Positions 37,901 to 59,472 are shown, counted from the first letter of the stretch. The stretch: DNA of 64,000 nucleotides from Burkholderiales bacterium (GCA_035259205.1 DATFWO010000285.1:5987-69986), one strand, 5' to 3'. Notes: generated by a model from the letters alone, not told the origin. Program-made: numbers and translations.

Positions 37901-38893
37901 CTATTCCGCCACGATGTTGTTGCGGCGGATGATTTCCGCGAACCTCGCCCGTTCTTTCTTCAAGCTGGCGGCGAATTCCTCGGGGGTGTCGAAAATCGGA
38001 ATCAATGCCAGAGCGTCGAGCTTTTCCCTGATCGCGGGCGATTTCATCACCTGCATGATCTCGGCGCTCAGGCGGCGAACGATAGCGGGAGAAGTGCCCG
38101 CCGGCGCAGCGACCATGAAGGACGCGTGAGCCTCGATGCCTGGATAGCCGGCATCGGCGAGCGTGGGCGTTCCGGGAAGAAGGGGCGTGCGCAGCGTGAC
38201 GGCGAGCGCCACCACTCTTCCCGACGGAATGTGCGGCAGCGCCGTCACGATATCGGACGCCATGAACGCCAGGTCGCCGCGCAGCAAGCCTTGGATCGCC
38301 TGGCCGAGGCCCTTGTACGGGACGTGCACGAACCGCGCGCCCGCGGTCTCCTCGATCATCTTCACCCCGAGATTGGTCGTGCTGCCCGAGCCGGCCGAAC
38401 CGTATGCGAGCTTGCCCGGCACCCGCCTGGCCAATGCCACGAGAGCAGGGACGCTGGTCACCGGCACCGAAGGGTGGCTGACGAAGACAAGCGGATTGAT
38501 GACGCCGCGCGCGACCGGAGCAAAGTCGCGCTCCGCGTTGTATGGCAGATTCCTGTACAGGCTCGGATTGACGACGAGCGCCGGGGTCGCGGAGACGAGA
38601 AAAGTGTAGCCGTCAGGCGCGGACTTCGCCGCCATCTCGGCGCCGATGTTGCCGCTCGCCCCGGGACGGTTCTCCACGATGAACTGTTGCTTCAGGGCGT
38701 CGCCCAGCCCCTGGGCCAGCAGGCGCGCGTAGATGTCGGTGCCGCCGCCGGGCGAAGAAGGCACGACGAGCCGGACCGCTCGTGCGGGCCACGCCGGAGG
38801 TTGCACTGGATCCTGAGCTTGCAGCGGCGCCGCCGGCATTGCGAACGCAAGGGCGAGCACAACGGCGTATCCATGCTTCATGGCGTACAGCAT
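37901..38893 (-). CDS. Bug/TctC-family periplasmic solute-binding protein
   Basis: 330 aa (the start may be the internal ATG at 38881). Signal peptide, WPARAVRLVVPSSPGGGTD, ENRPGASGNIG, PDGYT, YGSAGSGSTTNL, HVPYKG. Confidence 0.9.
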   Translation of the reverse strand: MLYAMKHGYAVVLALAFAMPAAPLQAQDPVQPPAWPARAVRLVVPSSPGGGTDIYARLLAQGLGDALKQQFIVENRPGASGNIGAEMAAKSAPDGYTFLVSATPALVVNPSLYRNLPYNAERDFAPVARGVINPLVFVSHPSVPVTSVPALVALARRVPGKLAYGSAGSGSTTNLGVKMIEETAGARFVHVPYKGLGQAIQGLLRGDLAFMASDIVTALPHIPSGRVVALAVTLRTPLLPGTPTLADAGYPGIEAHASFMVAAPAGTSPAIVRRLSAEIMQVMKSPAIREKLDALALIPIFDTPEEFAASLKKERARFAEIIRRNNIVAE

Positions 38894-38943: not shown

Positions 38944-39921
38944 ATGATTTCGAACCGGAGGGCCGTCTGCGGACTGTCGTTGGCCGGCGCGCTCGTGGTT
39001 TTCGCCCACGCTGCCGCGCAGGACTGGCCCGCCCGCCCGCTGCGGTGGATCGCGGCGCAACCGCCGGGATCGGCGCTCGACATCACCGCCCGCCTGCTGG
39101 CCGAGCGGCTCGTTCGCTCTTGGGGCCAGCAGGTCGTGGTGGACAACCGCGCGGGCGGACAGAGCGTGATCGGGGCGTTGGCCGCAGCCCGAGCCGCACC
39201 CGATGGCTACAGTTATTTTGTGGCGACGCCCGCAGCGGTCGCCAGCAACGTCTACACGTTCAAGTCCCTGCCGTACGACCCGGTGAGGGATTTCATGCCG
39301 GTCGCCATGATCGGAGAGTCGCCCTTCGTCGTCGCGGCGCAGCCGAAACTGCCGGCGACGACGATCGGCGAGCTGGTCGCCCTGGAGAGAGCGCAGCCCG
39401 GGAAGCTCGCCATGGCGAATCAGGGTGCGAGGACTTTCGGCGGGATGGTCGGCGCGATGTTGAACCAGGCGTCCGGAATGAGGCTGCTGCAGGTTCCCTA
39501 CAACTCCCCGGGGCTGGCGATACAGGACACGCTCGGAGGTAGGGCGCAGGTCGTCCTGCTCAGTTCCGGTGCGCTGGCCGCATTCCTGAAGCGCGGAGAC
39601 CTGCGGGCTCTTGCCGTTACATCGGCCCGGCGCGTGCCCGGACTGGAACACGTTCCGACGCTGTCCGAGTCCTTTCCCGGATTTGAATACAGCGGGTGGT
39701 TTGCATTGCTCGCTCCGTCGGGCACGCCGCCTGCTATCGTTCAACGCGTAAACCGCGACCTGCAGCGTCTTCTGGCCGATCCCGACGTCGTGCAAAAGCT
39801 GGGGGATCTTGGCGTCATGACGGAAGGAGCCGGGACGCCGGAAATGCTCGGCAAATTCCTGGCCGCCGAGCGGGTACGCTGGGCGAAGCTCGTGCGCGAG
39901 ATCGGGCTCGAGCCGGAGTAG
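38944..39921 (+). CDS. Bug/TctC-family periplasmic solute-binding protein
   Basis: 325 aa. Signal peptide, QDWPARPLRWIAAQPPGSALD, DNRAGGQSVIG, PDGYS. A more divergent member (MANQGARTFGGM replaces the YGSAG motif). Confidence 0.85.
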   Translation: MISNRRAVCGLSLAGALVVFAHAAAQDWPARPLRWIAAQPPGSALDITARLLAERLVRSWGQQVVVDNRAGGQSVIGALAAARAAPDGYSYFVATPAAVASNVYTFKSLPYDPVRDFMPVAMIGESPFVVAAQPKLPATTIGELVALERAQPGKLAMANQGARTFGGMVGAMLNQASGMRLLQVPYNSPGLAIQDTLGGRAQVVLLSSGALAAFLKRGDLRALAVTSARRVPGLEHVPTLSESFPGFEYSGWFALLAPSGTPPAIVQRVNRDLQRLLADPDVVQKLGDLGVMTEGAGTPEMLGKFLAAERVRWAKLVREIGLEPE

Positions 39922-39971: not shown

Positions 39972-40553
39972 TCAGGCCGGAAAAAGCAGGAGGCAGCCTC
40001 CGAACACGCTGATCGCAGCGCCGCCAACGCGAACGAGGGGCTGGCGTTCCTTGAGTGCGGCCCCCGCGCCTATTCCGAGGGCGTGGAGCGTGGCGGTGGC
40101 GGCGAGTACGCCGGCAAGAAAGTGCCAGCCGAGCGCGAAAGCAGGCATTTCAGCGCCGTGGGCGTAGCCGTGAGCCAAGGCGAAAGCGGCAACGAGCGGG
40201 ATCGCCCAGTAGCGCGCCGCACGCATGGAAAACGCCACCAGGAGTCCCAGCGCCAGGACTGACAGGGCGATACCGCTTTCGACGCCGGGAATGGTGCCGC
40301 CCGACACGGCCACGGCGGCACCAGCTGCCACGGCCGTGACGAAGAGCAGCGGCACGGCCAGCACGTAACGCCCGCCGAGCTGCACGGCCCAGATTCCTAC
40401 TGCGACCATCGCGAGGAGATGATCCAGTCCCAGGAATGGATGCGTGAACCCCGCGGCGAAATCGCCGGCTGAATGAACGCCCACATGCGCTGACGCGGCG
40501 CCGCTCCCCAGCAACGCCGCAATCCCTGGGAGGAAACGAACTACACGGTGCAT
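39972..40553 (-). CDS. hupE: HupE/UreJ-family metal (Ni/Co-type) permease
   Basis: Track ORF trimmed to ATG 40553 (GAAGGAAG RBS upstream). 193 aa. Signal peptide ending ASAH, signature THPFLGLDHLL, multiple TM segments, AHGYAHG. Confidence 0.8.
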   Translation of the reverse strand: MHRVVRFLPGIAALLGSGAASAHVGVHSAGDFAAGFTHPFLGLDHLLAMVAVGIWAVQLGGRYVLAVPLLFVTAVAAGAAVAVSGGTIPGVESGIALSVLALGLLVAFSMRAARYWAIPLVAAFALAHGYAHGAEMPAFALGWHFLAGVLAATATLHALGIGAGAALKERQPLVRVGGAAISVFGGCLLLFPA

Positions 40554-40608
40554 TGCTGTTCTTCCTTCTGTCTTATGGGGCGCATTTGAAGCGCCGAGCA
40601 AAGCTGGT

Positions 40609-40655
40609 GTGACCCATCACTCATCACTGGCCCATTACTCATGACCCATCACCGA
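40609..40655. repeat. Short-period array of CCCATCAC/TCATCAC-type units (7/14-nt period)
   Basis: TGACCCATCACTCATCACTGGCCCATTACTCATGACCCATCACCGATC read directly, immediately 3' of the cupin gene stop (40658). Confidence 0.6.
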
Positions 40656-40657
40656 TC

Positions 40658-41272
40658 TCAAGCGGGTTCCTTGACCCTGCGCTCCAGATAGCGCCTGACG
40701 AGCTCCCCGGTGAGCACGACCTTGGCATCGTATTCGGGCGCGTCCTCGATCTGCTCGAGGTCATTCAGCCCGCTGAGGCGGTAGATGCGATTGATCGCGG
40801 AAATCAACCGTACCGGGCGCTCCGGATCGGCGTTGAAGTGCTGATGGATGGTGTTGGGGGGGATGTAGATCAGGTCGCCGGCTTCCCATTCGTAGCGCTT
40901 GATCTCGTCCTGCGCCTTCCAGTGATAGGTGTCGGTGATCTCGACGTCGCAATCCTGGTGCAGGTCGTAGCCGCGGCCCTCCAGCACGTAGAGGCACTCC
41001 TCGGCCAGATGCCGGTGCTTGCCGGAGCGGCTGCCGGGAGGGATGGCCTGCATGTAGGCATCCACGGTATCCATGCGCGTATTCATCTGCTCGTTCAGCA
41101 GATGCTTGAGCAGCCCCTGCCGGGACATTTCCCACGGCATTTCTTCGGGGTGCACGATCTTCTTGCGCTTGGCGTTCCGCATGGGGGCGCCGCTGGCGTC
41201 GTCGAGGAGATCCTGATAGAGCTTGCCACTCAACTTGCCGCGCATCCATGCCCTTGATTCATCCCAGGCCAT
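40658..41272 (-). CDS. Monocupin metalloprotein (cupin-2 type)
   Basis: 204 aa. Cupin motif 1 GSRSGKHRHLAEECLYVLEG and motif 2 GDLIYIPPNTIHQHFN. Confidence 0.8.
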   Translation of the reverse strand: MAWDESRAWMRGKLSGKLYQDLLDDASGAPMRNAKRKKIVHPEEMPWEMSRQGLLKHLLNEQMNTRMDTVDAYMQAIPPGSRSGKHRHLAEECLYVLEGRGYDLHQDCDVEITDTYHWKAQDEIKRYEWEAGDLIYIPPNTIHQHFNADPERPVRLISAINRIYRLSGLNDLEQIEDAPEYDAKVVLTGELVRRYLERRVKEPA

Positions 41273-41287
41273 CTGAGTTCTCCTTCA

Positions 41288-41375
41288 GCGTAAGCGATAA
41301 ACGGTGAGCCGTGAGCAGTCTACAGACAGCGGCGCTCCTGCTCTCACCATACACTGTCCACTATTAACTGTTTGT
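41288..41375. repeat. Heptamer-type inverted element (..TAAACGGTGAGCCGTGAGCAG.. / ..CTGCTCTCACCATACACTGTCCACTATTAACTGTTTG)
   Basis: Read directly. The right arm overlaps the stop (41364-41366) and last codons (...HSTNS) of the 186-aa cupin gene. Confidence 0.65.
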
Positions 41376-41924
41376 CGAGTGGTTGTAGTCGTCCTCGGCC
41401 TCTCTTGCCCGGAAGCCTTCGGCGCCGGGCGCAGGCTCCGTGGGACGGGCCTCGACCAGCTTCTGGAAAAGCATGTTCATGAACAGGTACATCGGCTTGC
41501 TCTTGAGCACCAGCGCTCGCGCGGGTTTGGCAGGATCGGCGTTGAAATGCTGGTGGACGCAGTTGCTGTGGACGACCGCAACGTCGCCGGCCTGCCAGTC
41601 GTAGCGTATCCCGTCGTGGATCTCGTAACCGCGGCCGTCGAGTATATAGAATGCGGCCTCGTTAACGTGCCCGTGTTTTTGCGACTTGCCGCCGGGACCG
41701 TATTCTTCAAGGTGTATATGCAACGTCTGGCCGAGTCCATCCTTGGGCTCGACGTAGTGGCGGCTGTAGCACTGGGGACCGTCGACGAACTTGATCTCCG
41801 TGCCCTTCCTCACCCGGGGTAGCGAGCGCAGTCGCTTCAGCTCCTCCCTGAGATTGTAGTGACCGGCGATCGCCCGTACGAATATCCGGTCCTTCTTGCT
41901 GTGATAGTGCGATTCGTTGCTCAT
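41364..41924 (-). CDS. Monocupin metalloprotein (cupin-2 type)
   Basis: 186 aa. GGKSQKHGHVNEAAFYILDG and GDVAVVHSNCVHQHFN. Shares the W-x-AGD...HQHFNADP signature with 40658-41272. Confidence 0.8.
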   Translation of the reverse strand: MSNESHYHSKKDRIFVRAIAGHYNLREELKRLRSLPRVRKGTEIKFVDGPQCYSRHYVEPKDGLGQTLHIHLEEYGPGGKSQKHGHVNEAAFYILDGRGYEIHDGIRYDWQAGDVAVVHSNCVHQHFNADPAKPARALVLKSKPMYLFMNMLFQKLVEARPTEPAPGAEGFRAREAEDDYNHSTNS

Positions 41925-41943
41925 AACGCCCTTTCCGGCTGGC

Positions 41944-43014
41944 CTACCTGGCCTGCTTGGTAATGATCTCAGAATATAGTTTATTCCATTTATCGTTCTC
42001 GTCGAGTACCAGCCTGGGGTCGACGAGCTTGAGCGGCATTTTGTGCACCGGGGTGCTGATCTTCCTGTTGGCGGGGGTGAAATCGCGCTTGAGGAGCAGC
42101 TCCTGCGCGTCGGTCAGCATGAAATCGTAGAACAGAATGGCCGCGTGCGGATGAGGCGCGTTGCGCGCGAGGCCTATGCCCTGAAAGCGTGCAATGATCG
42201 GCGGCAGGGCGAACCAGTCTATGGGCGCACCGTGGTTCTTCAGCTGCTCGGCCTTGTATTGATAGACCGTCAGCGCCAACGGTACCTCGCCCGACACCAC
42301 CAGATTGGTGAGCAGGGTATGGCCCTTGCGCACCGAGATGCCGTTGGTGCCGACGATATCGCGAAAGAGCTTCAGGCCTTTTGCTTCGCCCAGGTCGCTG
42401 ATGACTCCCGCAAACCAGTCGAGGTCGCTCGCCTCGATCCCGAGCCTGCCCTTCCACCTGGGATTCAGCAGGTCTTCGTAGCTCTTGGGAACCTCTTCCT
42501 TCTTGACGAGCTTGGTGTTGTAGGCGGCCACGAAAACGTTGAGCCGCGTGCCCACCCATTCCCGGTGCTGGGGTATGGCCTGCGGAATCAGATCGGCCAA
42601 GTGGGGCGACTTGACCTCCTGGAGGAGTTTCTCCCGGTACAGGGATTCCATTTCGGGCGTGTTGGTTTCGAAGATATCGGCTTCGTAGCGTCGGGCACGC
42701 TCCTCGGACACGCCCCGGCGCACGATGTTCTCGGAGCTCGCGCGCCAGACCTGGATCTTGAGGCCGTATTTCTTCTCGAACGCAGACGTCAGCACGAGCA
42801 TGTCGTCGGGCGGTGCAGACGAGTAGACGGTGAGCGTCGCTTCCTTGCGTGCCGCTTCGATCAGCCGCGGGGTCCGGTCGGGGCCCGTATAGGTTGCGAT
42901 ATCGGCGACGGTGGCTGCGGCCAGGGCCGGTGCGCTGAGCAACGTCCCCACCAATCCGAGCAGCGCGCATGCGCCGATTCCCAAACGGTCTGCGAAGGAA
43001 AGCGTACAGGGCAT
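41944..43014 (-). CDS. ABC transporter periplasmic substrate-binding protein (family-1, Fe(III)/polyamine/phosphonate-type)
   Basis: Track ORF trimmed to ATG 43014. 356 aa. Signal peptide ...LLSAPALAAA, LTVYSSAPPDDMLVLTSAFEKKYGLKIQVWR is typical of AfuA/PotD-like binding proteins. Confidence 0.8.
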   Translation of the reverse strand: MPCTLSFADRLGIGACALLGLVGTLLSAPALAAATVADIATYTGPDRTPRLIEAARKEATLTVYSSAPPDDMLVLTSAFEKKYGLKIQVWRASSENIVRRGVSEERARRYEADIFETNTPEMESLYREKLLQEVKSPHLADLIPQAIPQHREWVGTRLNVFVAAYNTKLVKKEEVPKSYEDLLNPRWKGRLGIEASDLDWFAGVISDLGEAKGLKLFRDIVGTNGISVRKGHTLLTNLVVSGEVPLALTVYQYKAEQLKNHGAPIDWFALPPIIARFQGIGLARNAPHPHAAILFYDFMLTDAQELLLKRDFTPANRKISTPVHKMPLKLVDPRLVLDENDKWNKLYSEIITKQAR

Positions 43015-43101
43015 CGTCGGGTCAGTCGTCGATCGTGGGCATCGAGCATGATAGCCGGAAAGCGATCGCACCCGGCGCGATCCAGGAAATGGCGGGGCGT
43101 T

Positions 43102-44199
43102 TCATGCGAGCTCCGCTTCGTATGCCGCGTCCATCCGCGATTTGAGTCCGTGCTTTGCGAGCGCCTCGGAGAACGTCTGGCGGATCACCGGCTTCTCGTC
43201 GGTGTAGTCGATCTGGTCGCCGCCGAGCCGGCGGCTGATCCAGGCCTTGGGCACGCCCTGTGCGTTGCGGATGGCTACCGATTCGTACTTGAACGCGAGG
43301 TAGCGCGCCGGCGTGGTCCCGGTGTTGAAGTGCTGGTGAAACCACATGTTGGGCGGAACGATCATGGTCCCGACCTGCCAGTCGTAGCGCCGCGGCTCGT
43401 CCCCCTCCGGCCACATGAGGGTGTAGCCCTCGCCCGAGAGCACGATCACGTGAGCGCCCGGACCGTGCGCGTGGGCCTTCTTGTACGTGCCGACCGGAAA
43501 CTGGGAGATGTGGCTGTTCATCGATCCCTTCGCCATGTTGAACCGGATGTGCCCGCCGCCGGCACCGCGTTCCTTGGCGCTGATCAGCGGCAGGTTGACC
43601 GCGTCCGCGACGAAATTCGTGTCGAGCAGCAGGCCCTTCTGCTCGCCCTTGCTGCTGAAGTACTCGGGCTCGCCGGAAAACCGGTTCTTGAAGTCGTAGC
43701 GCGTGTTGAACACGAACTCGATGTCGTCGAACTGGTTCATCACCACCGGCCCGTTGGTGACGGCTACGTAGCGCGCGGGCTCCCGTCCGGAGCCGTTGAA
43801 ATGCTGGTGCCAGGTGTTGAGCGGGATCGCAAACAGCGCGCCCGCCTTCCACTCGAAGGTAACGCGGTTCCCGGCATCGTTCCATACGGTCGTCGAGCCG
43901 CGCCCGGAAAGGATCAGGATCATTTCCTCGAACAGCTGGCGCTGCGGCGCGAGCTGGCCCCCGGCCGGAATTTCGCAGATATAACAATCGTTGGACGTGC
44001 GTGACGCCTCGTGATTGATGTATACGCCGCGCCCGCCGCGCCGCGCCCATGGCCGCAGCTCCACCGCATGCAGGTTCGGCACGTGGTGCGCGCCGATGAT
44101 CTCGAGGCCTTCGCTGCGCACCCAGCGGGTGTATGGCGTGTCCTTTTCGGTGGCGAACTTCTTGGCAAACTCCTCTGAAACGATTGCGCTTTGGCTCAT
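43102..44199 (-). CDS. Bicupin protein (two cupin-2-like barrels)
   Basis: Track ORF 43102-44307 trimmed to ATG 44199 (the upstream part translates the heptamer array). 365 aa. N-module ...PQRQLFEEMILILSGRG...GALFAIPLNTWHQHFN and C-module ...KAHAHGPGAHVIVLSGEG...GTMIVPPNMWFHQHFN. Confidence 0.8.
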   Translation of the reverse strand: MSQSAIVSEEFAKKFATEKDTPYTRWVRSEGLEIIGAHHVPNLHAVELRPWARRGGRGVYINHEASRTSNDCYICEIPAGGQLAPQRQLFEEMILILSGRGSTTVWNDAGNRVTFEWKAGALFAIPLNTWHQHFNGSGREPARYVAVTNGPVVMNQFDDIEFVFNTRYDFKNRFSGEPEYFSSKGEQKGLLLDTNFVADAVNLPLISAKERGAGGGHIRFNMAKGSMNSHISQFPVGTYKKAHAHGPGAHVIVLSGEGYTLMWPEGDEPRRYDWQVGTMIVPPNMWFHQHFNTGTTPARYLAFKYESVAIRNAQGVPKAWISRRLGGDQIDYTDEKPVIRQTFSEALAKHGLKSRMDAAYEAELA

Positions 44200-44214
44200 A
44201 GCCTGCTCCGCTGA

Positions 44215-44330
44215 ATAAACAGTGAACGGTGAACAGTGAACGGTAGCGAGTAAACAGTAAATAGTGAACAGTAGATAGAAGTTGAACTGCTGGTCTTTCC
44301 CGTTCATCGTTCACTGTTCACGATTCACTG
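44215..44330. repeat. Ten tandem heptamers (ATAAACA GTGAACG GTGAACA GTGAACG GTAGCGA GTAAACA GTAAATA GTGAACA GTAGATA GAAGTTG) plus complementary arm CCGTTCA TCGTTCA CTGTTCA CGATTCA CTG, a long hairpin
   Basis: Read directly. The reverse complement of 44300-44330 (CAGTGAATCGTGAACAGTGAACGATGAACGG) matches 44220-44243 (CAGTGAACGGTGAACAGTGAACGG) apart from a 1-nt indel and mismatch. The right arm contains the ABC ATPase stop codon (44325-44327). Confidence 0.85.
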
Positions 44331-45428
44331 CCTCAGGGCCACGCACTTCTCCGGGTTCATGCGAGCGTAGATCTTCTCACCAACGGGGGTCCTGAGCGAG
44401 GGGTGGGCGCGCGCAAGCAGGACGCGCTCCCCGAGGCCGACCTGAAAATCGACGTGCTCGCCGAGGAATACCTTGGCACGGACGACGCCCGTGCGGACGT
44501 TGTCGGCATTGCGACTGTCAGGGACCTGCTCGGATAGCTCGATGTCCTCCGGTCGAACCGACAGGACGACGGTGTCGCCCGCATTCAGGATTTCCGCCGA
44601 ATTCGCCTCGAGCTCGCCGAGCTCCGTGACCACGCGGCACGCGCCATCCCGCCCCTCGACGGAAACGACCTGCGCATCGATGAAATTCGTGGAGCCGACG
44701 AAGTCGGCCACGAAGCGGTTGCGCGGCTGCTCGTAGATCTCGCGCGGCGTGCCGACCTGGATCAGCTCGCCCTCGCTCATCACGGCAATCTGGTGCGAGA
44801 GCGCCAGCGCCTCGCTCTGGTCGTGGGTGACGTACACGGTGGTATGCCCGAACTCCTGCTGCAGGCGCTTCAGCTCGAAGCGCATGCGCTCGCGCAGCTT
44901 CGCATCGAGGTTGGACAGCGGCTCGTCGAGCAGGAGCAGCCGCGGCTCCCGCACCAGCGCCCGCGCGAGCGCGAGGCGCTGCTGCTGGCCGCCGGAGAGC
45001 TTCGTTGCGTCGCGCTCCGCCAGATCATCGAGGCCGACGGCGGCGAGAACGCGCATGACCTTGTCCCGGATCTCTTTCCTGTCGTGCCCGCCTGCGACCT
45101 CGAGCGGGAACGCTGCATTTTCGAAGACGTTCATGTGCGGCCAGATCGCATACGACTGGAAGACCATGCCGAAGTTGCGCTTGTTTGGAGCGATGAACGT
45201 ATTGGTCGCGGACGAGTAGACGACGGCGCCGTGGACCGAAATTTCTCCGGAGGTCGGGCGTTCGAGGCCGGCGATGGAGCGCAGGGTGGTCGTCTTGCCG
45301 CAGCCGCTGGGACCGAGCAGGGTAAACCACTTGCCCGTCGGCACCTCGAAGGTAACATCGCGTGCGGCTCGGACGGTTGCGCCGTGCACACCCGGATACT
45401 CCGTGCAGAGCGCAGTTACCTTCAGCAT
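44325..45428 (-). CDS. ABC transporter ATP-binding protein (PotA/FbpC/MalK-like with C-terminal TOBE-type domain)
   Basis: Track ORF trimmed to ATG 45428. 367 aa. Walker A GPSGCGKTT, signature LSGGQQQR, Walker B LLLLDEP, H-loop VTHD. Confidence 0.9.
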   Translation of the reverse strand: MLKVTALCTEYPGVHGATVRAARDVTFEVPTGKWFTLLGPSGCGKTTTLRSIAGLERPTSGEISVHGAVVYSSATNTFIAPNKRNFGMVFQSYAIWPHMNVFENAAFPLEVAGGHDRKEIRDKVMRVLAAVGLDDLAERDATKLSGGQQQRLALARALVREPRLLLLDEPLSNLDAKLRERMRFELKRLQQEFGHTTVYVTHDQSEALALSHQIAVMSEGELIQVGTPREIYEQPRNRFVADFVGSTNFIDAQVVSVEGRDGACRVVTELGELEANSAEILNAGDTVVLSVRPEDIELSEQVPDSRNADNVRTGVVRAKVFLGEHVDFQVGLGERVLLARAHPSLRTPVGEKIYARMNPEKCVALRQ

Positions 45429-45527
45429 GTGCACGCCCCCGGAATGCTGCGGGTCCAAGAAGCGCCGCGGTGCAATACGCCGACGCTCCGGAACGAACGC
45501 CGCAGCGCTTGTCCATATTTGCTGAAG

Positions 45528-47282
45528 TCAGCTTCGCCCGTTGCGAGTTTTCTCATGATCGTGATGATAATGGCCATGCTCGTGATTCTGATCATGGTCG
45601 TGATGATGGGGATGATCGTGAGAATGCCCATGAGGATGATGGTGAGCATGACCATCGTGCGGATGCTCGTGCGGCAGTCGCGGGTCCGCCTTGAATACCA
45701 GGGATTTCACCGTGACCGGCACCGTTTGCGACGGCATCCGGATGCGGCCGAGGTCGACGTAGTCGAAATCCCAGAGCGTCACCCCGTCGATCACCAGGAT
45801 GTCGCTTTCGACTTTCATTTCTTCGCGCAGGATGGCGCCCAGGTTCTGGGCGATGTCGCCGTCGAGCACGATGAAGAGCGGCTTGCGCTGGGCGATCGTG
45901 TGCGCGAATCCCCGCGCAATGCCTGCGGCGAAGGCCGCGATCCTCTCGTAGGAGGGGGATCCGCGCCAGCGCAGCGCGATCGCCACCTCGGTTTCGCCTT
46001 CGACCAAATCGAAGGCGGTGTGATGGTCGCGGATCGCGCCCGCGAGCTGGTCCACGTCGATCCGGTCCGTGCAGTGGTAGGCCGGCTGCAGCACCTGGAG
46101 ATTCCTGCGTGGCAGCAGGATGCCCGGGTCGGAGATATAGATGGTGTTGCCCGAGAGCTGCACGCTGTACTCCGATGCGCCCAGCGCGGTCGCGCGTATG
46201 CACTCGCCGGGTGGGAGGAGTGGCCAGGGCAGGGCGCCGCCGTCGAGCTTGCGCCGCAGCGCTAGGCCGAGGAGGCGTCCCATGTCGCCGAAATCGCGCG
46301 TCTCCCGCTGATACAGGTATTCGGCGACGCCCCCCGAAAACATGACGCCGGCTATGCCCTCCAGATCCGGAAGGGGATCGGTCAGGTACAGACGTTCCAG
46401 AACCGGGGGCAGCGGCCGGGCAGTGATGCAGCCGAGCAAGGCGTCCGCCATGCCGTCCGCGACACGCGCCATTGCTTCCGGCGGCGCGACATCGCCGCGG
46501 CTCCAACGGTAACCGGCTTGCGCCGCAAGGTGGCGTCCGGCGGGGTCGAGCCGCACGATGCGCTGATTCGCGTTTACTACCTGCAAGCGCCCTCCGATGT
46601 GTATCGCAGCCGTTGCGGTTACCCGCCCGTTCTCGATCACTGCGAGCTTCGTGGTGCCGCCTCCGATGTCGATATTGAGCAGGCGTTGCCCCGCCTCGTG
46701 GGATGCCGCCGCGGCGCCGGAGCCGTAGGCGGCGAGCGTGGCCTCCATATGATGCCCCGCGGTCGCGCACACGAACTCCCCGCCCTGATCGGCCAGCAGG
46801 CCGGCGATGGTTTCTGCGTTCTCGCGCCGCAGTGCCTCGCCCGTCAGGATCACCACGCCCGCGTCGACATTGTCCGGATGCAGTCCGGCCTGCTCGTACG
46901 CGGTGTCGATGATGGCGCCCAGTCCCGCCTCGTCGATGCGCTCCTCGCTCTGGTACGGCGTAAGAGAGACCGGCGACTCGAACAACGTTTCCCGCGAGAC
47001 CACGAAATAGCGGCTGGAAAGGTCTTCCGCGAGCCGCCGCAGATTCAACCTCGAGAAGATGACCTGCGTGCCGGCGGATCCGATATCGATGCCTACGCTG
47101 ACCAGGGTAACGTGATCCTGCAGCCACAGCGGGTCCTCTTCGGCGGAGCCTGCGCCGTCGAAGTGATCGTGGTCGTGATCCGCGGCTTCGTCGCCGTCGT
47201 GCGTATGGTCGTAGTCTTCCCCGTAGCGGTGGTCCTCGAGCGTATGAGGCCGCCGCCGGGTCGCGTCGTTATTGTCTTCCAT
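45528..47282 (-). CDS. EutA-family (ethanolamine ammonia-lyase reactivase-like) ASKHA ATPase with His-rich N- and C-terminal extensions
   Basis: 584 aa. The core is colinear with my recollection of E. coli EutA (SVGIDIGSAGTQVIFSRL, LLNIDIGGGTTKLAV, terminal VPVTVKSLVF). Extra residues 1-56 and the last 52 are His/Asp-rich. Confidence 0.8.
   Translation of the reverse strand: MEDNNDATRRRPHTLEDHRYGEDYDHTHDGDEAADHDHDHFDGAGSAEEDPLWLQDHVTLVSVGIDIGSAGTQVIFSRLNLRRLAEDLSSRYFVVSRETLFESPVSLTPYQSEERIDEAGLGAIIDTAYEQAGLHPDNVDAGVVILTGEALRRENAETIAGLLADQGGEFVCATAGHHMEATLAAYGSGAAAASHEAGQRLLNIDIGGGTTKLAVIENGRVTATAAIHIGGRLQVVNANQRIVRLDPAGRHLAAQAGYRWSRGDVAPPEAMARVADGMADALLGCITARPLPPVLERLYLTDPLPDLEGIAGVMFSGGVAEYLYQRETRDFGDMGRLLGLALRRKLDGGALPWPLLPPGECIRATALGASEYSVQLSGNTIYISDPGILLPRRNLQVLQPAYHCTDRIDVDQLAGAIRDHHTAFDLVEGETEVAIALRWRGSPSYERIAAFAAGIARGFAHTIAQRKPLFIVLDGDIAQNLGAILREEMKVESDILVIDGVTLWDFDYVDLGRIRMPSQTVPVTVKSLVFKADPRLPHEHPHDGHAHHHPHGHSHDHPHHHDHDQNHEHGHYHHDHEKTRNGRS
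45531..45686 (-). other. His-rich C-terminal tail of the EutA-like protein (21 His in 52 residues)
   Basis: DPRLPHEHPHDGHAHHHPHGHSHDHPHHHDHDQNHEHGHYHHDHEKTRNGRS, counted by hand. Begins where canonical EutA ends. Confidence 0.85.
47133..47282 (-). other. Acidic, His-rich N-terminal extension of the EutA-like protein
   Basis: MEDNNDATRRRPHTLEDHRYGEDYDHTHDGDEAADHDHDHFDGAGSAEED: 7 His and 18 Asp/Glu in the first 50 residues (hand count). Confidence 0.85.
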
Positions 47283-47337
47283 CGGTGGCAGCCTCGGGGA
47301 GCGCCGGAAACCCGTTATCGTAATGCAAGCGGTTCTC

Positions 47338-49245
47338 CTAGATATCGCCGCACCCGCAGCCCAGCGACCAGGTGCCGGTTGCGCCGAACACCAGCGGCTG
47401 GGAGTGTCCCTGGGTAACCGGGGTCATGGCGGCAGCCGAGGCGAGCTTGTAGTACCCGCCGTATTGCCGCACCGGCAGCCAGTCCTGCACGACGGGCGGC
47501 AAACCCGGATCGAGCTTCGAATACGGGCCGGCGGCGTAGACGACTTTTCCACCGACCATCGTGAGCACGGATTCGAGGTCCTTGATTGCGTCCACCGGGA
47601 CAGAGAAGTAATCGGCCGAGAGTATCGCCAGGTCGGCGAGCTTGCCGGCCTCGAGCGTGCCTTTCTTGTGCTCTTCTGAAGACACCCAGGCCCCGCCTGC
47701 GGTGTAGAGGCGCAGCGCCTCCGTGCGGTCGAGCAGGTTGCGCTCGCCCTGCAGCTTCTCGCCCCCCAGCGTGCGGCCGGTGACCAGCCAGTGCACCCCT
47801 ATCCACGGGTTGTAGCTGGTAGCCCGGTTGGCGTCGGTGCCGCAGGCGAGCGGTATGCCCATCTCGCGCACTCGCGCGATCGGGGGCGCATCGGCCGCCG
47901 CCTGCGGGCCGTATTTCCTGACAAATGCCTCGCCATCGAGCGACATGCGGTTCTGGATATTGATGCTGCCGCCCAGCGCGGCGACGCGCTCGAGCGTTTT
48001 CGCCGAGAGTGTCTCGCAGTGATCGAGCCCCCACCGCAGGTTCTTGAGCGGCACTTCGCGGTTCACTCCCTCGAGCACGTCGACGATGCGGGTTGCCGAC
48101 GCGTCGAAGCTCGTGTGCTGGCGGAATGGCCAGCCCTGTCCCGCAAGATATTTGACCACTGCCGCCAGATTTTTCTCCATCACGCCGGGGGGTGGCACCG
48201 GATAGTCCTTGGCGAAATTCGCAACGTCGCCCGCGGCATACAGTATGTATTCACCCGCCCCGACCATACGATAGTAGTCGTTGCCTTCGCCGTATTTCAC
48301 CAGCTTGGACCACGCCGTGTAGTTCTCGATCTCCTTCCCCGGCGCCTGGGCGAAGAGCTGATAACCGATGCGCAACGTCATGTGCCCGTCGGCCGCCAGC
48401 TTTGCGATCGCCTGGTAGTTGTCCGGGTAGTTCTGGCCGCCGCCTCCGGCGTCGATCACGCTGGTCACGCCGAGCCGGTTGTGCTCGCGCATGAAGTGGC
48501 GGGTCGAAAGTATCTGATCCTCGGGGGGGAGGCGTGGAATGCGCAACCAGACTCCGACGAGGCTCGCGAGGCTGGTGGTCGATAGCACGAGGCCGGTCGG
48601 GTTGCCGCCGGCGTCGCGGTCGATCGTGCCGCCGAACATGTCTTTGGTCTCGTTGCTCCAGCCGAGCACCCTCAATGCCGCGCGGTTGAGCCACGCCCGA
48701 TCGTAGAGGTGCATTACCATGCACGGCGTATCGCCGGATGCCGCGTTGATCTCATCGAGGGTCGGAAAACGCTTTTCGGCGAATTGCGCCCAGGTCCATC
48801 CGCCGATCACCTGCACCCAATGCGGCGGCGGCGTGCGGCGTGCCTGCTCGCGCACGCGGCGCAGGCCTTCCGCGAGCGTAGGCACGCCGTCCCAGCGCAC
48901 TTCGTTGGTATAAGTGAGACCCCCGCGGATGAAATGAGTATGCGCATCGTTCAGTCCCGGGATGACCGTGCGGCCGGCTGCGTCGATCACCTTGGTCGCC
49001 GGACCGCGCAGTTGAGCGAGGTCCGTCTCGCTGCCGACGCCGATGATGGCCTCGCCCTTGACCGCAAGGGTCGTTGCGGTCGGCTGCCTGCGATTGAGCG
49101 TCGCAATGCGGGCGTTCACGATCATGGTGTCGGCCGGCCCCGCAGACCCGGCGACGGATGCGCACCCGCCGAGCATCGACCACGCCAGGAGGCTGCCGCC
49201 GCCGGCGAGCGAGTCGCGGATGAACTCGCGCCGCCGCGGGTCCAT
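47338..49245 (-). CDS. Amidohydrolase-3 (YtcJ-like) metal-dependent hydrolase with Tat signal and lipobox
   Basis: Only the C-terminal 635 codons of the 1105-aa track ORF are used. ATG 49245 gives MDPRRREFIRDSLAGGGSLLAWSMLGGCAS (RRxFI, LGGC), then GLNDAHTHFIRGG, ...ACGTDA.... Ends ...WSLGCGCGDI. Confidence 0.8.
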   Translation of the reverse strand: MDPRRREFIRDSLAGGGSLLAWSMLGGCASVAGSAGPADTMIVNARIATLNRRQPTATTLAVKGEAIIGVGSETDLAQLRGPATKVIDAAGRTVIPGLNDAHTHFIRGGLTYTNEVRWDGVPTLAEGLRRVREQARRTPPPHWVQVIGGWTWAQFAEKRFPTLDEINAASGDTPCMVMHLYDRAWLNRAALRVLGWSNETKDMFGGTIDRDAGGNPTGLVLSTTSLASLVGVWLRIPRLPPEDQILSTRHFMREHNRLGVTSVIDAGGGGQNYPDNYQAIAKLAADGHMTLRIGYQLFAQAPGKEIENYTAWSKLVKYGEGNDYYRMVGAGEYILYAAGDVANFAKDYPVPPPGVMEKNLAAVVKYLAGQGWPFRQHTSFDASATRIVDVLEGVNREVPLKNLRWGLDHCETLSAKTLERVAALGGSINIQNRMSLDGEAFVRKYGPQAAADAPPIARVREMGIPLACGTDANRATSYNPWIGVHWLVTGRTLGGEKLQGERNLLDRTEALRLYTAGGAWVSSEEHKKGTLEAGKLADLAILSADYFSVPVDAIKDLESVLTMVGGKVVYAAGPYSKLDPGLPPVVQDWLPVRQYGGYYKLASAAAMTPVTQGHSQPLVFGATGTWSLGCGCGDI

Positions 49246-49464
49246 CTCGACGCGCGATGGTTCGCCGCCAGCGCAGGAGTTGCGGTACGGTCCGATATCC
49301 CTGAGCACCTTGGTTTCTCCCTGGTTCCGTCGCGCCGGCCCACACGACGTGGGATTGTGTTCGTTCGTCCCGGGGGCGATGGTCCCGGGGCAATATACGA
49401 TACGCGCGGCAAAGCCGTAAACCGCTGCTTGTATGCGCCGGCGCCGGAAGCGATAATCGGTTCC

Positions 49465-50580
49465 ATGAGCCAGGCCCGCAAACAGCCGCCGTTTCGCGCG
49501 GATCACGTCGGCAGCCTGTTGCGTCCGCCGGAGCTGCATGCGACGCGCGCCAGGGCGGCGAAGGGTGAGATCGACCGCGCGGCGCTGCGGTTGAAAGAGG
49601 ACGAGTGCATACGCAACGTCGTGGCGCTCCAGGAATCGGTCGGGCTGCAGAGCATTACCGACGGGGAGTTTCGGCGCGACTGGTGGCACATCGATTTTCT
49701 GCACGGATTCGACGGCGTGGACCTGGCGCAGGGCGATGCGTACGGCAACGCCAGGTTCCAGGGCGCCGACGAGCAACCGCCGTTCATGCAGGTCACTCGC
49801 AGGATCCGGCGCGTGAAGCCGAGCATGCTCGACCACTTCAAGTATCTGAAGTCGGTCACCAGGCGCACGCCCAAGTTCACGATGCCTTCGCCTGCGATGC
49901 TGCATGCCCGCGGCGATCGCGAAGCGATGCGCAGGACCTATCCCGACCAGAAGGAATTCTGGGCCGACCTTACCCAGGCCTACCGGGAGGAAATCCGCGA
50001 TCTTTACGACGCGGGATGCCGCTACCTCCAGATCGACGACACGACGATCGCCATGATGGGCGACCCGAAAGTGCAGGAGCAGTTTCGCAAGCTGGGAGAC
50101 GACCCGAAGAGCGACATGGCGGTGTATGCCGACGCGGTCAATGCCGCGATACGGGACGTCCCCGATGACATGACCGTCGCCATCCACACCTGCCGCGGCA
50201 ACTTCAAGAGCACCTGGCTGGCAAGCGGCAGCTACGATTTCGTGGCCGACACGTCGTTCGCGCGGCTCGACGTCGATGCGTTCTTCCTCGAGTACGACAC
50301 CGAGCGCGCCGGCGGTTTCGAGCCGTTGCGGTTCGTGCCGAAGGGAAAGACGGTGGTGCTGGGGCTCGTCAGCACCAAGGTGGCGGAGCTCGAGAAGAAA
50401 GACGACCTGAAGCGCCGCATCGACGCTGCGGGGAAATTCGTGCCGCTCGAGAACCTTTGTCTCTCCCCTCAGTGCGGCTTTTCGAGCACGCATCACGGCA
50501 ACAAGATCACCGAGGACGACGAGCGGCGCAAGCTCGCGCTCGTGCTGGAAGTCGCTCAGGAGGTCTGGGGCTCGAGCTAG
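49465..50580 (+). CDS. Single-domain MetE-like protein (cobalamin-independent methionine synthase family, second subtype)
   Basis: Track ORF 48709-50580 trimmed to ATG 49465. 371 aa starting MSQARKQPPFRADHVGSLLRP. Putative Zn ligands IHTCRGN and SPQCGFSS. Confidence 0.85.
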   Translation: MSQARKQPPFRADHVGSLLRPPELHATRARAAKGEIDRAALRLKEDECIRNVVALQESVGLQSITDGEFRRDWWHIDFLHGFDGVDLAQGDAYGNARFQGADEQPPFMQVTRRIRRVKPSMLDHFKYLKSVTRRTPKFTMPSPAMLHARGDREAMRRTYPDQKEFWADLTQAYREEIRDLYDAGCRYLQIDDTTIAMMGDPKVQEQFRKLGDDPKSDMAVYADAVNAAIRDVPDDMTVAIHTCRGNFKSTWLASGSYDFVADTSFARLDVDAFFLEYDTERAGGFEPLRFVPKGKTVVLGLVSTKVAELEKKDDLKRRIDAAGKFVPLENLCLSPQCGFSSTHHGNKITEDDERRKLALVLEVAQEVWGSS

Positions 50581-50584: not shown

Positions 50585-50714
50585 GCGTCGCAGATAAAAC
50601 GTCGCAGATGCGGCGTCGCAAAAAAGGGGTGTCGCAGACACGGCGCCTTCAACAACGCCTTATCTGGGACGTTCTATCTGAGACGCATCACCCGAGACGC
50701 TTCATTTGCGACGC
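50585..50714. repeat. Inverted pair of 14-nt-period arrays: 4 x (G)CGTCGCAGAT-type units, then 4 x ATCTGAGACG-type units
   Basis: GTCGC units start at 50587/50601/50615/50631. CTGGGAC/CTGAGAC/CCGAGAC/TTGCGAC start at 50664/50678/50692/50706. Lies between convergent MetE-like genes. The last unit encodes the C-terminus and stop of 50702-51889. Confidence 0.85.
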
Positions 50715-51889: not shown

Positions 51890-51969
51890 GATAATCTGGC
51901 GCTCTCGGTCGTATGCCGCCATTCTACGTGTCCATTCGCTCCTATTGCGACCGGTCAGGGAGGCGCCTC

Positions 51970-55059: not shown

Positions 55060-55291
55060 AGCGACCTCCGTACGGTTTTGGCGCGGCCCTCCCCGCGGCG
55101 TAAGCGCCCATCCCTATTCACGAGCGACTACTGTGCCAGCGATGATAAACTACCAAAAATCAATTTGTTACTCGATTCGCTCGGCTGGCAGTTGTCGCCG
55201 TGTTGCGACGCCGGTCCGAGCGGCAAGCGCCAGCGAAATGATTTGCCGATTGTTTTCCTTTCGTTGATTGGCAACAGACCGGATTCGGACC

Positions 55292-59443: not shown

Positions 59444-59472
59444 CAGCGCCTGCCTAGCCGTCCTGAGCGTCC

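Follow-up and report, generated by a model that had tools for sequence, protein, structure and literature searches.

A candidate two-part module of a His-rich EutA-like ATPase and gentisate-dioxygenase-like cupin enzymes in a Burkholderiales bacterium and other Proteobacteria

Introduction

The actin/Hsp70-like ATPases of the DdrAB/GdrAB type open inactivated diol/glycerol dehydratase and swap its cofactor. XylT, a small [2Fe-2S] ferredoxin, reactivates catechol 2,3-dioxygenase by reducing Fe(III), and oxygen-inactivated extradiol dioxygenases are likewise rescued by dedicated XylT-type ferredoxins. His-rich tails are typical of the Ni chaperones UreE, HypB, SlyD and CooJ, and some members of the HupE/UreJ family are predicted cobalt transporters. 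Among cupin enzymes, gentisate-type dioxygenases as a rule depend on Fe(II) and work unaided; to our knowledge the described gentisate 1,2-dioxygenases (GDOs) are Fe(II) enzymes with no accessory ATPase, and we know of no dedicated chaperone for QueD or Ni-acireductone dioxygenase (ARD). Many kinases and phosphatases, as well as many ATP-dependent hydrolases and carboxylases, have the ASKHA fold, but we know of no member of the EutA family that is a small-molecule enzyme.

EutA reactivates EutBC using ATP (PMC12487888). What sets the metal choice of cupin dioxygenases in vivo has been posed as a question still to be answered in work on Ni-quercetinase (PMC4416304).

Here we analyze a cluster in which a His-rich EutA-family ATPase is encoded beside several cupins, within a 64,000-nucleotide stretch of Burkholderiales DNA (the window). 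On an evenly balanced judgment, the cluster is one instance of a widespread, uncharacterized two-part module made of the His-rich ATPase and gentisate-dioxygenase-like cupin enzymes. No account of an EutA-like/cupin module was found in the literature.

Results

The first-pass annotation of the window had described eight co-oriented minus-strand genes. Their open reading frames, coordinates and intergenic gaps (55, 99, 125, 87, 19, 91 and 104 nt) were all reproduced, and the family assignments of the eight proteins stand, every Pfam match lying above the gathering score (Table 1). The N-terminus of the amidohydrolase reads as a Tat motif (RRREFI) followed by a lipobox (LGGC), and no PDB relative of this protein was found at E < 1e-10. 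Its proposed membership in the system was not borne out: it lies beside the module in this window only and in 0/80 species loci, and is therefore probably a co-oriented neighbor outside the conserved module. This gene and an absent permease are the sole oddities of what is otherwise a typical copy of the module.

Table 1 Features of the cluster in window coordinates.
Feature	Position	Strand	Evidence or description
Amidohydro_3	47338-49245	minus	Pfam 361 bits; Tat and lipobox
EutA-family ASKHA ATPase, type 1, 584 aa	45528-47282	minus	Pfam EutA 396.5 bits
N-terminal His/Asp motif of ATPase, residues 13-39	47166-47246	minus	H-x3-DH-x2-G-x4-H-x-H-x6-DHDHD
C-terminal His-rich tail of ATPase, residues 531-584	45531-45692	minus	21 His in 54 residues past KSLVF
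ABC ATPase (PotA/PhnT2/FbpC-like)	44325-45428	minus	ABC_tran and TOBE_2 (Pfam)
Inverted heptamer-repeat array GTGAAC(N), long hairpin	44200-44324	minus	fold z = -3.4
Type-1 bicupin, 365 aa	43102-44199	minus	two Cupin_2 stretches (Pfam)
Bicupin C-terminal metal-ligand motifs	43330-43473	minus	H243-x-H245-GPGA-H250...H288-Q-H290, putative ligands
SBP, FbpA/AEP/PLP (cluster D) type, periplasmic	41944-43014	minus	SBP_bac_1/6/8/11 (Pfam)
cupin186, 186 aa	41364-41924	minus	Cupin_2 46.9 bits
cupin204, 204 aa	40658-41272	minus	Cupin_2 50.7 bits; Cupin_7 and Auxin_BP matches
HupE/UreJ-family permease (Ni/Co type), 193 aa	39972-40553	minus	Pfam HupE_UreJ 172 bits

The match of the ATPase to the EutA profile (PF06277; cutoff 27 bits) extends over residues 59-531 and profile positions 2-475 of 475. 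Besides this family membership, the protein shares with EutA of E. coli (b2451) and Salmonella 35% identity to the E. coli sequence over the whole core and identical ASKHA nucleotide-binding motifs, as VGIDIGS (DIGS/T), DIGGGT and SGGVAE (SGGVxE) are invariant in the alignment with E. coli EutA. Both are presumably ATP-driven chaperones that act on proteins. However, the window ATPase scores below the cutoffs of all four NCBIfam EutA equivalogs, NF007991-4 (score/cutoff 314/598, 265/769, 212/952 and 199/799 bits), it has no eutBC partner, and its conserved partner is a cupin rather than a B12 enzyme. The reported absence of eutB and eutC was confirmed by tblastn with E. coli EutB and EutC, which gave 0 matches in the window and 94 related loci (1.6 Mb). 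An Rfam search of the window returned no match of any family and thus no B12 (cobalamin) riboswitch. The AF2 model of the ATPase has an overall pLDDT of 66.5, with values of 80-90 across most of residues 100-360 and disordered tails; with this model Foldseek retrieved generic ASKHA neighbors only (Ppx/GppA, MreB, PilM and HgdC). Profile and fold searches found no P-loop family match for the ATPase, P-loop GTPases such as UreG, HypB and CobW included; its likeness to these chaperones is confined to the His-rich tail.

The ATPase further departs from EutA in an invariant N-terminal H/D motif, a His-rich C-terminal tail, and Cys and His residues conserved specifically in its own type (C172, H177, H178, H228, C361 and H420). 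In the N-terminal motif, H13, D17, H18, G21, H26, H28, D35, H36, D37, H38 and D39 do not vary among 41 homologs (69-78% identical) and are at least 99% conserved in 72 sequences of this type, referred to as type 1; alignments show the motif to be absent from the type-2 paralogs and from E. coli EutA. At the other end, nearly all of 86 type-1 sequences carry 'EDPR..P' followed by an HD/HG-rich tail of 15-70 residues, with few exceptions (among them L004-6, L014 and L026), and the window protein's tail weakly matches the His-rich tail of SlyD. The His-rich tails first noted in this single protein are therefore present at both termini and kept in its orthologs. As judged from these alignments, they are conserved motifs rather than drifting low-complexity sequence. 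No Cys conserved family-wide, as a candidate Fe-S cluster ligand, was found in the EutA-like alignments.

The bicupin consists of two barrels, each with a motif 1 and a motif 2 (QRQLFEE...WHQHFN and HAHGPGAH...FHQHFN). It resembles GDO and other ring-cleaving bicupins in its two-barrel architecture, its HxH...H pattern, its 'HQHFN' motif 2 and its aromatic-catabolism context. The nearest PDB entry is the S. pomeroyi GDO 3bu7, although this similarity is marginal (E 1.6e-6 with a profile) and the cutoffs of the NCBIfam dioxygenase equivalogs are not reached (gentisate, 34/650 bits; 5-aminosalicylate, 17/442 bits). Unlike in GDO, it is the C-terminal barrel that holds the conserved His triad, HxH being replaced by [QH]RQ in the N-terminal one. 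More than 7000 homologs were found, the best 120 of which are 80-89% identical and named generically as cupin superfamily proteins. In 20 type-1 sequences the residues of the C-terminal ligand motifs show no variation. When intermediate and type-2 bicupins are included, H243 and H288 still never vary and H245 and H290 reach at least 90% conservation, and residue 250, a His or Tyr in the type-1 proteins, is replaced by Val or Ile in type 2. The AF2 model of the bicupin, at pLDDT 38, is too low in confidence for ligand geometry to be read.

The two smaller cupins align with different parts of the bicupin. Cupin186 aligns with residues 226-304, its H84, H86, H124 and H126 being at least 95% conserved in 34 homologs, and cupin204 aligns with residues 47-177 at 30% identity, with H86, E91 and H145 conserved. 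By these alignments they probably represent the C-domain-like (cupin186) and N-domain-like (cupin204) halves of a split bicupin, and their orthologs adjoin each other in at least 24 loci. His-based metal motifs are kept in all four cupin barrels.

Conservation of the ATPase-cupin pairing was assessed in 80 species-level loci, 58 of which have 6 kb or more of sequence downstream. Among these 58, a cupin homolog is present in 53 and an ortholog of the type-1 bicupin (73-84% identical) in 46. An ortholog was located in 52 of the full set of 80; in 48 of these it lies no farther than 5.5 kb from the ATPase gene, and in 20 the distance is under 600 bp. The pairing spans Alpha- and Betaproteobacteria in at least five gene orders, and its retention in two proteobacterial classes puts the adjacency far outside chance expectation. 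The hosts include many soil and freshwater proteobacteria. In a reverse test starting from six bicupin orthologs picked solely for long contigs, an EutA-family gene was found within 5 kb of all six, and it was of the His-rich type in five. The proposed EutA-like/cupin partnership is thus conserved in both directions. Of the genomic findings that the first-pass annotation had named as refuting its proposal, among them a lack of conserved EutA-like/cupin/HupE adjacency in related genomes and orthologs without His-rich tails, none was observed. No cupin was found within 10 kb in five fully flanked loci (L039, L058, L077, L086 and L090), and in L001 the only neighbor of the ATPase gene is an MFS gene.

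Sequence types of the two partners correspond. Type-1 bicupins (YKK[AG]HxHGPGA[HY]; [QH]RQL[FY]EE) go with the His-rich ATPase, and type-2 bicupins (YSKAHAHTSAAV; EKHMYEE) go with a His-less ATPase paralog, the type-2 genes lying 12-80 bp apart in seven loci. Intermediate ATPase/bicupin pairs are also adjacent (L017 and L083). On the basis of these gene pairs, the pairing is paralog-specific, and the type-1 bicupin can be proposed as the conserved partner and client of the type-1 ATPase. Since the His-less paralog also pairs with a bicupin, metal storage or delivery is not the whole or universal role of the family.

Transporter genes near the module are varied. The window's HupE/UreJ protein carries the family signature (HPxxGxDH) as FTHPFLGLDHLLAMVAVG. 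Including the window, HupE occurs in six loci: it follows cupin204 in L010, as in the window, and in L043, L069, L071 and L073 it lies upstream, in divergent orientation to the EutA-like gene. A NicO/NiCoT-like permease (HX4DH signature), unrelated to HupE, occurs in 11 Burkholderiales loci and in L096. Ni/Co-type permeases of two unrelated families thus recur near the module (HupE in 6 loci with the window counted, NiCoT-like in 11-12 others), although in just ~20% of loci, and a COG0523 gene is present in L098. The remaining neighboring transporters are heterogeneous, namely FbpABC-like ABC systems, MFS proteins and short CHR pairs.

Orthologs of the ABC ATPase (59-80% identical) are present in 40/80 species loci, and a fused 580-aa ABC permease is present in 37/80, lying between the EutA-like gene and the ABC ATPase gene where both occur. 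In the 64-kb window no homolog of an ABC permease or of an MFS protein was found, and so no complete set of SBP, permease and ATPase. The description of the ABC genes as a permease-less pair therefore applies to the window and to L066, L067 and L078, where the permease is also missing, but not to the 37 loci with the fused permease. The suggestion that this ABC system imports an organic substrate is unsupported. The nearest PDB entries to the SBP are the ferric-ion-binding HitA, YfuA and SfuA (E 2e-18 to 2e-14), followed by the PLP-binding P5PA (8e-11), yet the iron ligands of FbpA are not conserved. At the HitA motifs 'YNGQH', 'TEE' and the first Tyr of 'YYWY', which we take to hold the FbpA iron ligands His9, Glu57 and Tyr195, the SBP has Pro, Thr/Asn and Val, with one Tyr kept, in a mapping that is approximate at ~28% identity.

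The module sits in an aromatic-acid catabolic island and is neighbored by Rieske oxygenases. Decarboxylase-type genes are abundant in the clusters, including UbiD/UbiX, a homolog of 4,5-dihydroxyphthalate decarboxylase, and a PhtC-like class II aldolase. In 17 loci a BenC-like Fer2-FAD-NAD reductase is encoded close upstream of the type-1 ATPase gene.

Hairpin-forming repeat arrays had been described in three of the intergenic gaps. This holds for the gap between the bicupin and ABC ATPase genes only, which folds at -37.8 kcal/mol, a value equalled by 0/200 shuffles, and whose hairpin arms (44220-44242 and 44308-44330) are 91% complementary; the other two gaps (41273-41363 and 40554-40657) hold short arrays that fold no better than shuffles. 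The GTGAAC(N) heptamers recur at 18937-18956 and 23845-23864 in the same window, which indicates that the array is probably a dispersed intergenic repeat rather than an element specific to this system.

Discussion

We propose that the EutA-like ATPase serves cupin oxygenases as a factor for ATP-dependent maturation or reactivation, loading or repairing their metal centre, a proposal we regard as evenly poised between right and wrong. The metal handed over would probably be Ni or Co. By analogy with EutA and DdrAB, the ATPase would bind the cupin enzyme directly, and ATP hydrolysis would drive insertion or exchange of the active-site metal. The N-terminal H/D motif and the C-terminal HD/HG tail would capture a divalent cation, most likely Ni(II) or Co(II), and pass it to the cupin. 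HupE/UreJ would be the source of the cation here, and a NiCoT-like permease its source in other lineages. Once matured, the cupins may oxygenate hydroxylated aromatic carboxylates that the neighboring Rieske oxygenases and decarboxylases generate. Physical interaction, ATP dependence, metal identity and substrate are all inferred from genomics. More tentatively, type-1 EutA-like proteins could form a new ASKHA-fold class of metallochaperones or reactivases for the ATP-driven loading or swapping of Ni(II)/Co(II) in cytoplasmic cupin oxygenases; we consider this possible but doubtful.

DdrAB/GdrAB provide a mechanistic template for the ATPase proposal, but they have no detectable sequence match or top-ranking fold match to the ATPase, their small beta subunit was not found, and the cofactor proposed here is a metal ion rather than a corrinoid. 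With UreE, HypB, SlyD, CooJ and the COG0523 GTPases the ATPase shares HD/HG-rich tails, an association with Ni/Co permeases and, as proposed, nucleotide-dependent delivery. Unlike these, it is an ASKHA ATPase rather than a G3E P-loop GTPase or a PPIase, and its proposed clients are cupin oxygenases rather than urease, hydrogenase or CODH. Streptomyces QueD, a Ni/Co quercetinase, and Ni-ARD show that a cupin dioxygenase can operate with Ni or Co, but they have no significant sequence relation to the present cupins past the cupin fold (ARD matches at E ~0.06). XylT-type ferredoxins are similar in being accessory proteins encoded beside an aromatic ring-cleaving dioxygenase, whose inactivated metal centre they restore; the accessory protein here, however, is an ATPase of 540-600 aa without conserved cluster ligands.

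Reactivation is also the canonical function of the EutA family, and the ATPase could act as a conformational reactivase that frees a dead-end cupin site (e.g. one holding Fe(III) or bound product) instead of donating metal, the type-1 His tails being an accessory metal buffer. The close linkage of the tailless type-2 proteins to type-2 bicupins fits this, as does the precedent of ferredoxin rescue of extradiol dioxygenases, and the BenC-like reductases upstream could supply electrons. However, these reductases more plausibly serve the neighboring Rieske oxygenases, the EutA-like proteins lack a family-wide conserved Cys for an Fe-S cluster, and both the invariant N-terminal H/D motif and the recurring Ni/Co permeases would be left unexplained; we consider this reading unlikely. 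Alternatively, the protein might be a catalytic pathway enzyme, like a kinase, ligase or carboxylase, working on a small aromatic intermediate ahead of its conversion by the cupin, with incidental His tails. The ASKHA fold holds many enzymes of such kinds, the Foldseek neighbors are generic, and the decarboxylases and PhtC-like aldolase so frequent in the clusters would suit such a step. Its 35% full-length identity, though, is to a protein-acting reactivase in a family with no small-molecule enzyme known to us, conserved His tails of 20-70 residues are hard to account for in a kinase, and the pairing tracks the bicupin paralog and no particular decarboxylase or oxygenase, so that we rate a catalytic role as quite improbable.

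The link to the cupins might instead be indirect, the His-rich ATPase belonging functionally with the transporter: in the cytoplasm it would accept or gate a metal or metal chelate brought in through the FbpABC-like system (or through MFS, CHR or HupE proteins). EutA-like gene, permease and ABC ATPase is indeed the commonest order (37/80 loci), the gene right after the ATPase gene in L001, L083, L088 and L089 encodes an MFS or CHR protein, and the closest proteins of known structure to the SBP bind ferric ions. This is very improbable, given that the bicupin is more frequent and more tightly retained than the permease (62 loci versus 37), that most of the 20 loci with a bicupin less than 600 bp from the ATPase gene have no intervening transporter, that the window, L066, L067 and L078 lost the permease and kept ATPase, SBP and cupins, and that the FbpA iron ligands are not conserved. 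Finally, EutA family membership and the predicted cobalt transport by some HupE/UreJ proteins would suit a genuine reactivase of an unrecognized adenosylcobalamin enzyme, for whose B12 HupE imports cobalt. Neither EutB/EutC nor any other recognizable B12 enzyme occurs among the recurrent neighbors, the window has no cobalamin riboswitch in Rfam searches, and the scores lie well below the EutA equivalog cutoffs; we consider this explanation extremely unlikely.

If the metal-loading proposal is true, the gentisate-dioxygenase-like cupins would be the first accessory-factor-dependent cupin enzymes, and they would mark a previously unrecognized Ni/Co-dependent step in bacterial aromatic-acid degradation. 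It would also be a common one, with wide and abundant occurrence among Alpha- and Betaproteobacteria of soil and fresh water.

The eight-gene cluster

Eight minus-strand ORFs with the same orientation and high third-position GC were observed in the cluster, and the coordinates and gene spacings of the first-pass annotation were reproduced exactly. Its family calls were likewise all borne out by Pfam: an Amidohydro_3 protein (361 bits) in which a Tat motif and a lipobox can be seen, an EutA-family ATPase (396 bits, residues 59-531 of 584), an ABC ATPase (ABC_tran and TOBE_2), a bicupin with two Cupin_2 stretches, a solute-binding protein (SBP, family 1/6/8/11), two single cupins (cupin186 and cupin204, of 186 and 204 aa) and a HupE_UreJ permease (172 bits). 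Homologues of the ABC permease and of MFS transporters were sought in the window and none were found. The earlier description of a permease-less ABC pair holds for the window and for L066, L067 and L078, which share the permease loss, and does not hold elsewhere, a fused ABC permease being present in 37 loci. The Tat-lipoprotein amidohydrolase had been proposed as a substrate-processing component; it was rejected as a member of the system, since no counterpart lies beside the module in any of 80 other loci (tblastn). The module in the window is a typical one, set apart by the lost ABC permease, the presence of HupE and the unrelated amidohydrolase upstream. A search of plasmid DNA matched only the generic ABC ATPase.

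Three gaps had been described as hairpin-forming. One is significantly structured (z = -3.4), while the other two are not. GTGAAC(N) heptamers from the structured gap recur at two further intergenic sites, and dispersed arrays of the heptamer give 9 matches in the window against 0.13 expected. Given this recurrence, and the lack of significant structure in the other two gaps, the repeat arrays were rejected as system-specific regulators.

Coordinates of features in the window and in related loci (L-numbers: loci from other genomes carrying EutA-like and/or bicupin genes)
Feature	Location	Strand	Remark
Eight-gene cluster	39972-49245	-	
Amidohydro_2 genes	17465-18595, 23934-24776, 27232-28272, 33453-34496, 34500-35549		LigW/ACMSD-type decarboxylase-like
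LigXa-type Rieske oxygenase	29861-31141		
UbiD decarboxylase	55268-57016		
TPP enzyme	61376-63094		
MetE-like gene	25883-27199	-	Meth_synt_2
MetE-like gene	about 49460-50580	+	Meth_synt_2
MetE-like gene	50702-51922	-	Meth_synt_2
TctC/Bug receptor genes	18999-20102, 24911-25870, 31309-32280, 37901-38893, 38944-39921, 51913-52953, 53514-54506		
TRAP DctPQM system	57134-60634		
Structured gap	44200-44324		
Long inverted repeat	44220-44330		GTGAAC(N) copy, between ABC ATPase and bicupin genes
GTGAAC(N) heptamers	18937-18956, 23845-23864		intergenic
Short array TGACCCATCACTCATC	40610-40657		three copies
9jp7 homologue	L015:7868-8857		330 aa
Second module	L055:2745-5571		example
CHR gene pair	L001:20515-21611		
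CHR gene pair	L098:11203-12355		
Toxin-antitoxin pair	L094:12728-13335		Gp49/HI1420-type
Apparent EutA-bicupin fusion ORF	L074:9995-12961		
Run of N/X in ATPase gene	L089:9743-12139		

Linkage of EutA-like and cupin genes across genomes

The EutA-like ATPase and the bicupin each have more than 7000 homologues; thousands of those of the EutA-like protein are close, and among the matches listed all are Burkholderiales-like or alphaproteobacterial. Cupins adjoin the EutA-like gene in the contexts of the five homologues inspected first. A species scan with one genome per species yielded 80 loci, which were compared with the window proteins by tblastn. These loci span Xanthobacteraceae, other Hyphomicrobiales, Rhodospirillales, Caulobacter, Devosia, Massilia, Herbaspirillum, Noviherbaspirillum, Polaromonas, Rubrivivax, Sulfuritalea and others. 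In 58 loci the sequence extends 6 kb or more downstream; 53 of these contain a cupin homologue and 46 a bicupin orthologue (73-84% identity). Across all 80 loci the orthologue is present in 52; its distance from the ATPase gene is under 600 bp in 20 of them and does not exceed 5.5 kb in 48. Conversely, an EutA-family gene lies at most 5 kb from the bicupin in all six orthologues picked only for long contigs, and is of the His-rich type in five. The adjacency is thus conserved in related genomes when approached from either gene.

Gene orders vary (EutA-permease-ATPase-bicupin-SBP; EutA-bicupin; EutA-cupin-cupin-SBP-MFS-bicupin; cupin-cupin-bicupin...EutA; bicupin-HupE(divergent)-EutA), indicating that the linkage has outlasted repeated rearrangement. 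The points at which the operons begin also vary from lineage to lineage. L010 has the exact gene order of the window, with a 581-aa fused ABC permease added between the EutA-like gene and the ATPase. In L094, an inserted toxin-antitoxin pair separates the bicupins from the EutA-like gene. No description of an EutA-like/cupin pairing was found in the main texts of openly available papers.

The EutA-like ATPase

The ATPase is 35% identical to E. coli EutA across the whole core, and the phosphate-1, phosphate-2 and adenosine motifs are invariant in this alignment. Although it belongs to the EutA Pfam family, it fails tests of EutA function, both in its eutBC context and in its scores, which fall far below all four NCBIfam EutA equivalog cutoffs (314 bits vs 598). 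In its AF2 model (pLDDT 66.5) the ASKHA core is ordered and the tails are disordered. Foldseek with this model returned generic ASKHA proteins and no reactivase-specific match, and a PDB sequence search detected no EutA-family structure.

The His-rich tails are kept in orthologues. H13, D17, H18, G21, H26, H28, D35, H36, D37, H38 and D39 are invariant in 41 homologues (69-78% identity), and in nearly all of 86 sequences the C-terminus consists of 'EDPR..P' and then a stretch of HD/HG repeats 15-70 residues long. Assembly or frameshift artefacts seem to arise where the 3' end of the gene encodes the HD repeats; the apparent fusion ORF in L074 and the run of N/X in L089 are taken to be of this kind. 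Core residues C172, H177, H178, H228, C361 and H420 are conserved specifically in type 1 (the window-like His-rich ATPase and its bicupin), C172 being invariant in 41 type-1 homologues. No family-wide conserved Cys was found in the EutA-like alignments, which argues against an HgdC/BcrAD-type Fe-S activator, and this 'archerase' role was rejected.

The cupins and their two module types

All four cupin barrels share the motif 2 'HQHFN', a likeness detectable even in DNA. Across all bicupin types, H243 and H288 of the 365-aa bicupin are invariant and H245 and H290 nearly so; thus, the conserved His triad sits in the C-terminal barrel. In alignments, cupin204 corresponds to the N-terminal half of the bicupin and cupin186 to its C-terminal half, and their genes adjoin wherever both occur, so that the two are read as probably a split bicupin. 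Among solved structures, S. pomeroyi gentisate 1,2-dioxygenase comes nearest to the bicupin, though a profile search gives no better than E 1.6e-6, and the cupins gave only marginal NCBIfam matches, to gentisate-type and 5-aminosalicylate-type dioxygenases. The cupins are a distinct clade close to the gentisate dioxygenases. Between two bacterial classes the bicupin keeps ~80% identity, an unusual degree of conservation; its AF2 model reached only pLDDT 38 with a shallow alignment in which all sequences are at least 80% identical.

Many loci contain a second module, in which a bicupin 31-34% identical to that of the window is followed directly by a gene for a His-less EutA-like protein (39-43% identical) and often an SBP. 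It lies near the first, with bicupin identities of 31-38%, in L015, L018, L020, L032, L035, L040, L048, L052, L055, L070, L080, L081, L083, L096 and L097; its SBP, where present, is FbpA-like, and in several Burkholderiales loci a NiCoT-like permease lies between the two modules. In type-1 bicupins the C-terminal barrel has the motif YKK[AG]HxHGPGA[HY] and the N-terminal barrel the motif [QH]RQL[FY]EE; their partner ATPases show 7-10 His within the last 70 N-terminal residues, with a His-rich C-tail in nearly every case. Type-2 bicupins carry YSKAHAHTSAAV and EKHMYEE, and lie 12-80 bp from ATPases without His-rich tails. Intermediate bicupins and ATPases adjoin in L017 and L083. This type-by-type co-diversification is the strongest sequence evidence for what would be a specific protein-to-protein functional relationship.

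Genomic neighbourhood and pathway

Neighbouring genes were clustered over the loci and representatives annotated by Pfam, NCBIfam and PDB. Besides the fused permease, the recurrent neighbours are the ABC ATPase (33 loci), SBPs (32), a TPP enzyme (24), a PhtC-like class II aldolase/decarboxylase (21), an IclR regulator (20), a BenC-like reductase (17), a 4,5-dihydroxyphthalate decarboxylase homologue (16; PDB 9jp7, E 2e-89), UbiD (11, some with UbiX), a LigXa-type Rieske oxygenase (10) and TctC/TctAB transporters. The homology to 9jp7 indicates phthalate-like substrates. This neighbour, found in L015 and 15 other loci, has no Pfam or NCBIfam match and often lies directly upstream of the type-1 ATPase gene.

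The window itself holds a LigXa-type Rieske oxygenase, UbiD, a TPP enzyme, five Amidohydro_2 decarboxylase-like genes and eight TctC genes. These accessory families are those recurring beside the module elsewhere, so that the window in its entirety resembles an aromatic-acid catabolic island. Together, the recurrent neighbours and window genes place the module in aromatic (poly)carboxylate catabolism, in which the cupins are most plausibly oxygenases. The density of TctC/Bug receptor genes is unusually high, as is typical of Burkholderiales, with no TctA or TctB among the annotated ORFs. Three MetE-like genes, with the catalytic domain of cobalamin-independent methyltransferases, are scattered in the island, two of them immediately upstream of the cluster.

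Possible metal supply and transport

The HupE/UreJ gene follows cupin204 in the window and L010, whereas in L043, L069, L071 and L073 it is upstream of the ATPase gene and divergent from it. A 270-aa NicO-family permease with the NiCoT signature KHGMDPDH and a GHG motif occurs in the clusters of 11 Burkholderiales loci and L096, and in L098 a COG0523 gene lies 4 kb off. That different lineages have unrelated permeases, both of Ni/Co type, and that the His tails resemble those of UreE, HypB and SlyD, points to Ni or Co, although such permeases, whether HupE/UreJ or NicO-family, occur in only about a fifth of the loci.

The ABC system belongs to the FbpABC/AEP/PLP type, with HitA, YfuA and SfuA as the closest SBP structures (E 2e-18 to 2e-14). 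The iron ligands of FbpA are not conserved in the SBP alignment, and a classical ferric importer was rejected on this ground. In some loci, MFS and short CHR transporters replace the FbpABC-like system. Short CHR-family (Chromate_transp) genes recur in pairs beside the ATPase or bicupin gene (L001, L083, L088, L089 (directly after the ATPase gene) and L098), adding a fifth transporter type to the neighbourhood.

Discussion

In the best-supported model, the EutA-like ATPase would mature or reactivate the cupin enzymes in an ATP-dependent manner. Since type-2 pairs do without His-rich tails, the core function that is conserved would be to act on the bicupin in the way of a chaperone. Metal sequestration would be a type-1 addition, in which the His tails may capture a divalent metal, probably Ni or Co, and then deliver it.

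Four other explanations were weighed. The likeliest is a pure conformational or redox reactivase, followed by an enzyme that itself catalyses an ATP-dependent small-molecule reaction. Third comes a metal acceptor associated with a transporter. A B12 reactivase serving an unrecognised B12 enzyme is essentially excluded: EutB and EutC were sought in the window and neither was found, as the first-pass annotation had claimed, and an Rfam scan of the window returned no riboswitch (B12 or NiCo) and no other RNA family.

Under the maturation model, the pairing is a case of accessory-NTPase-assisted maintenance of a metalloenzyme, an already known kind of system. The window ATPase resembles G3E proteins and His-rich Ni chaperones in its tails only, and there is a substantial chance, though one below even, that the type-1 ATPase is a new class of metallochaperone.

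How cytoplasmic cupin enzymes acquire the correct metal is a long-standing problem, and the general view is that the metals available during folding, rather than chaperones, determine their occupancy. A dedicated cupin ATPase, if true, would carry the reactivase concept beyond B12 enzymes to simple metal centers. Such an ATPase would also join the G3E GTPases and the MinD/CooC-type ATPases as a third structural class among the factors that insert metals by means of nucleotides. Where genes of Burkholderiales and Hyphomicrobiales are annotated as 'ethanolamine ammonia-lyase reactivating factor EutA', the function so assigned is likely wrong in many cases. The bicupin family is abundant and bears only the generic name 'oxalate decarboxylase/phosphoglucose isomerase-like cupin'; it would therefore represent an abundant enzyme of aromatic-carbon turnover without an assigned function.
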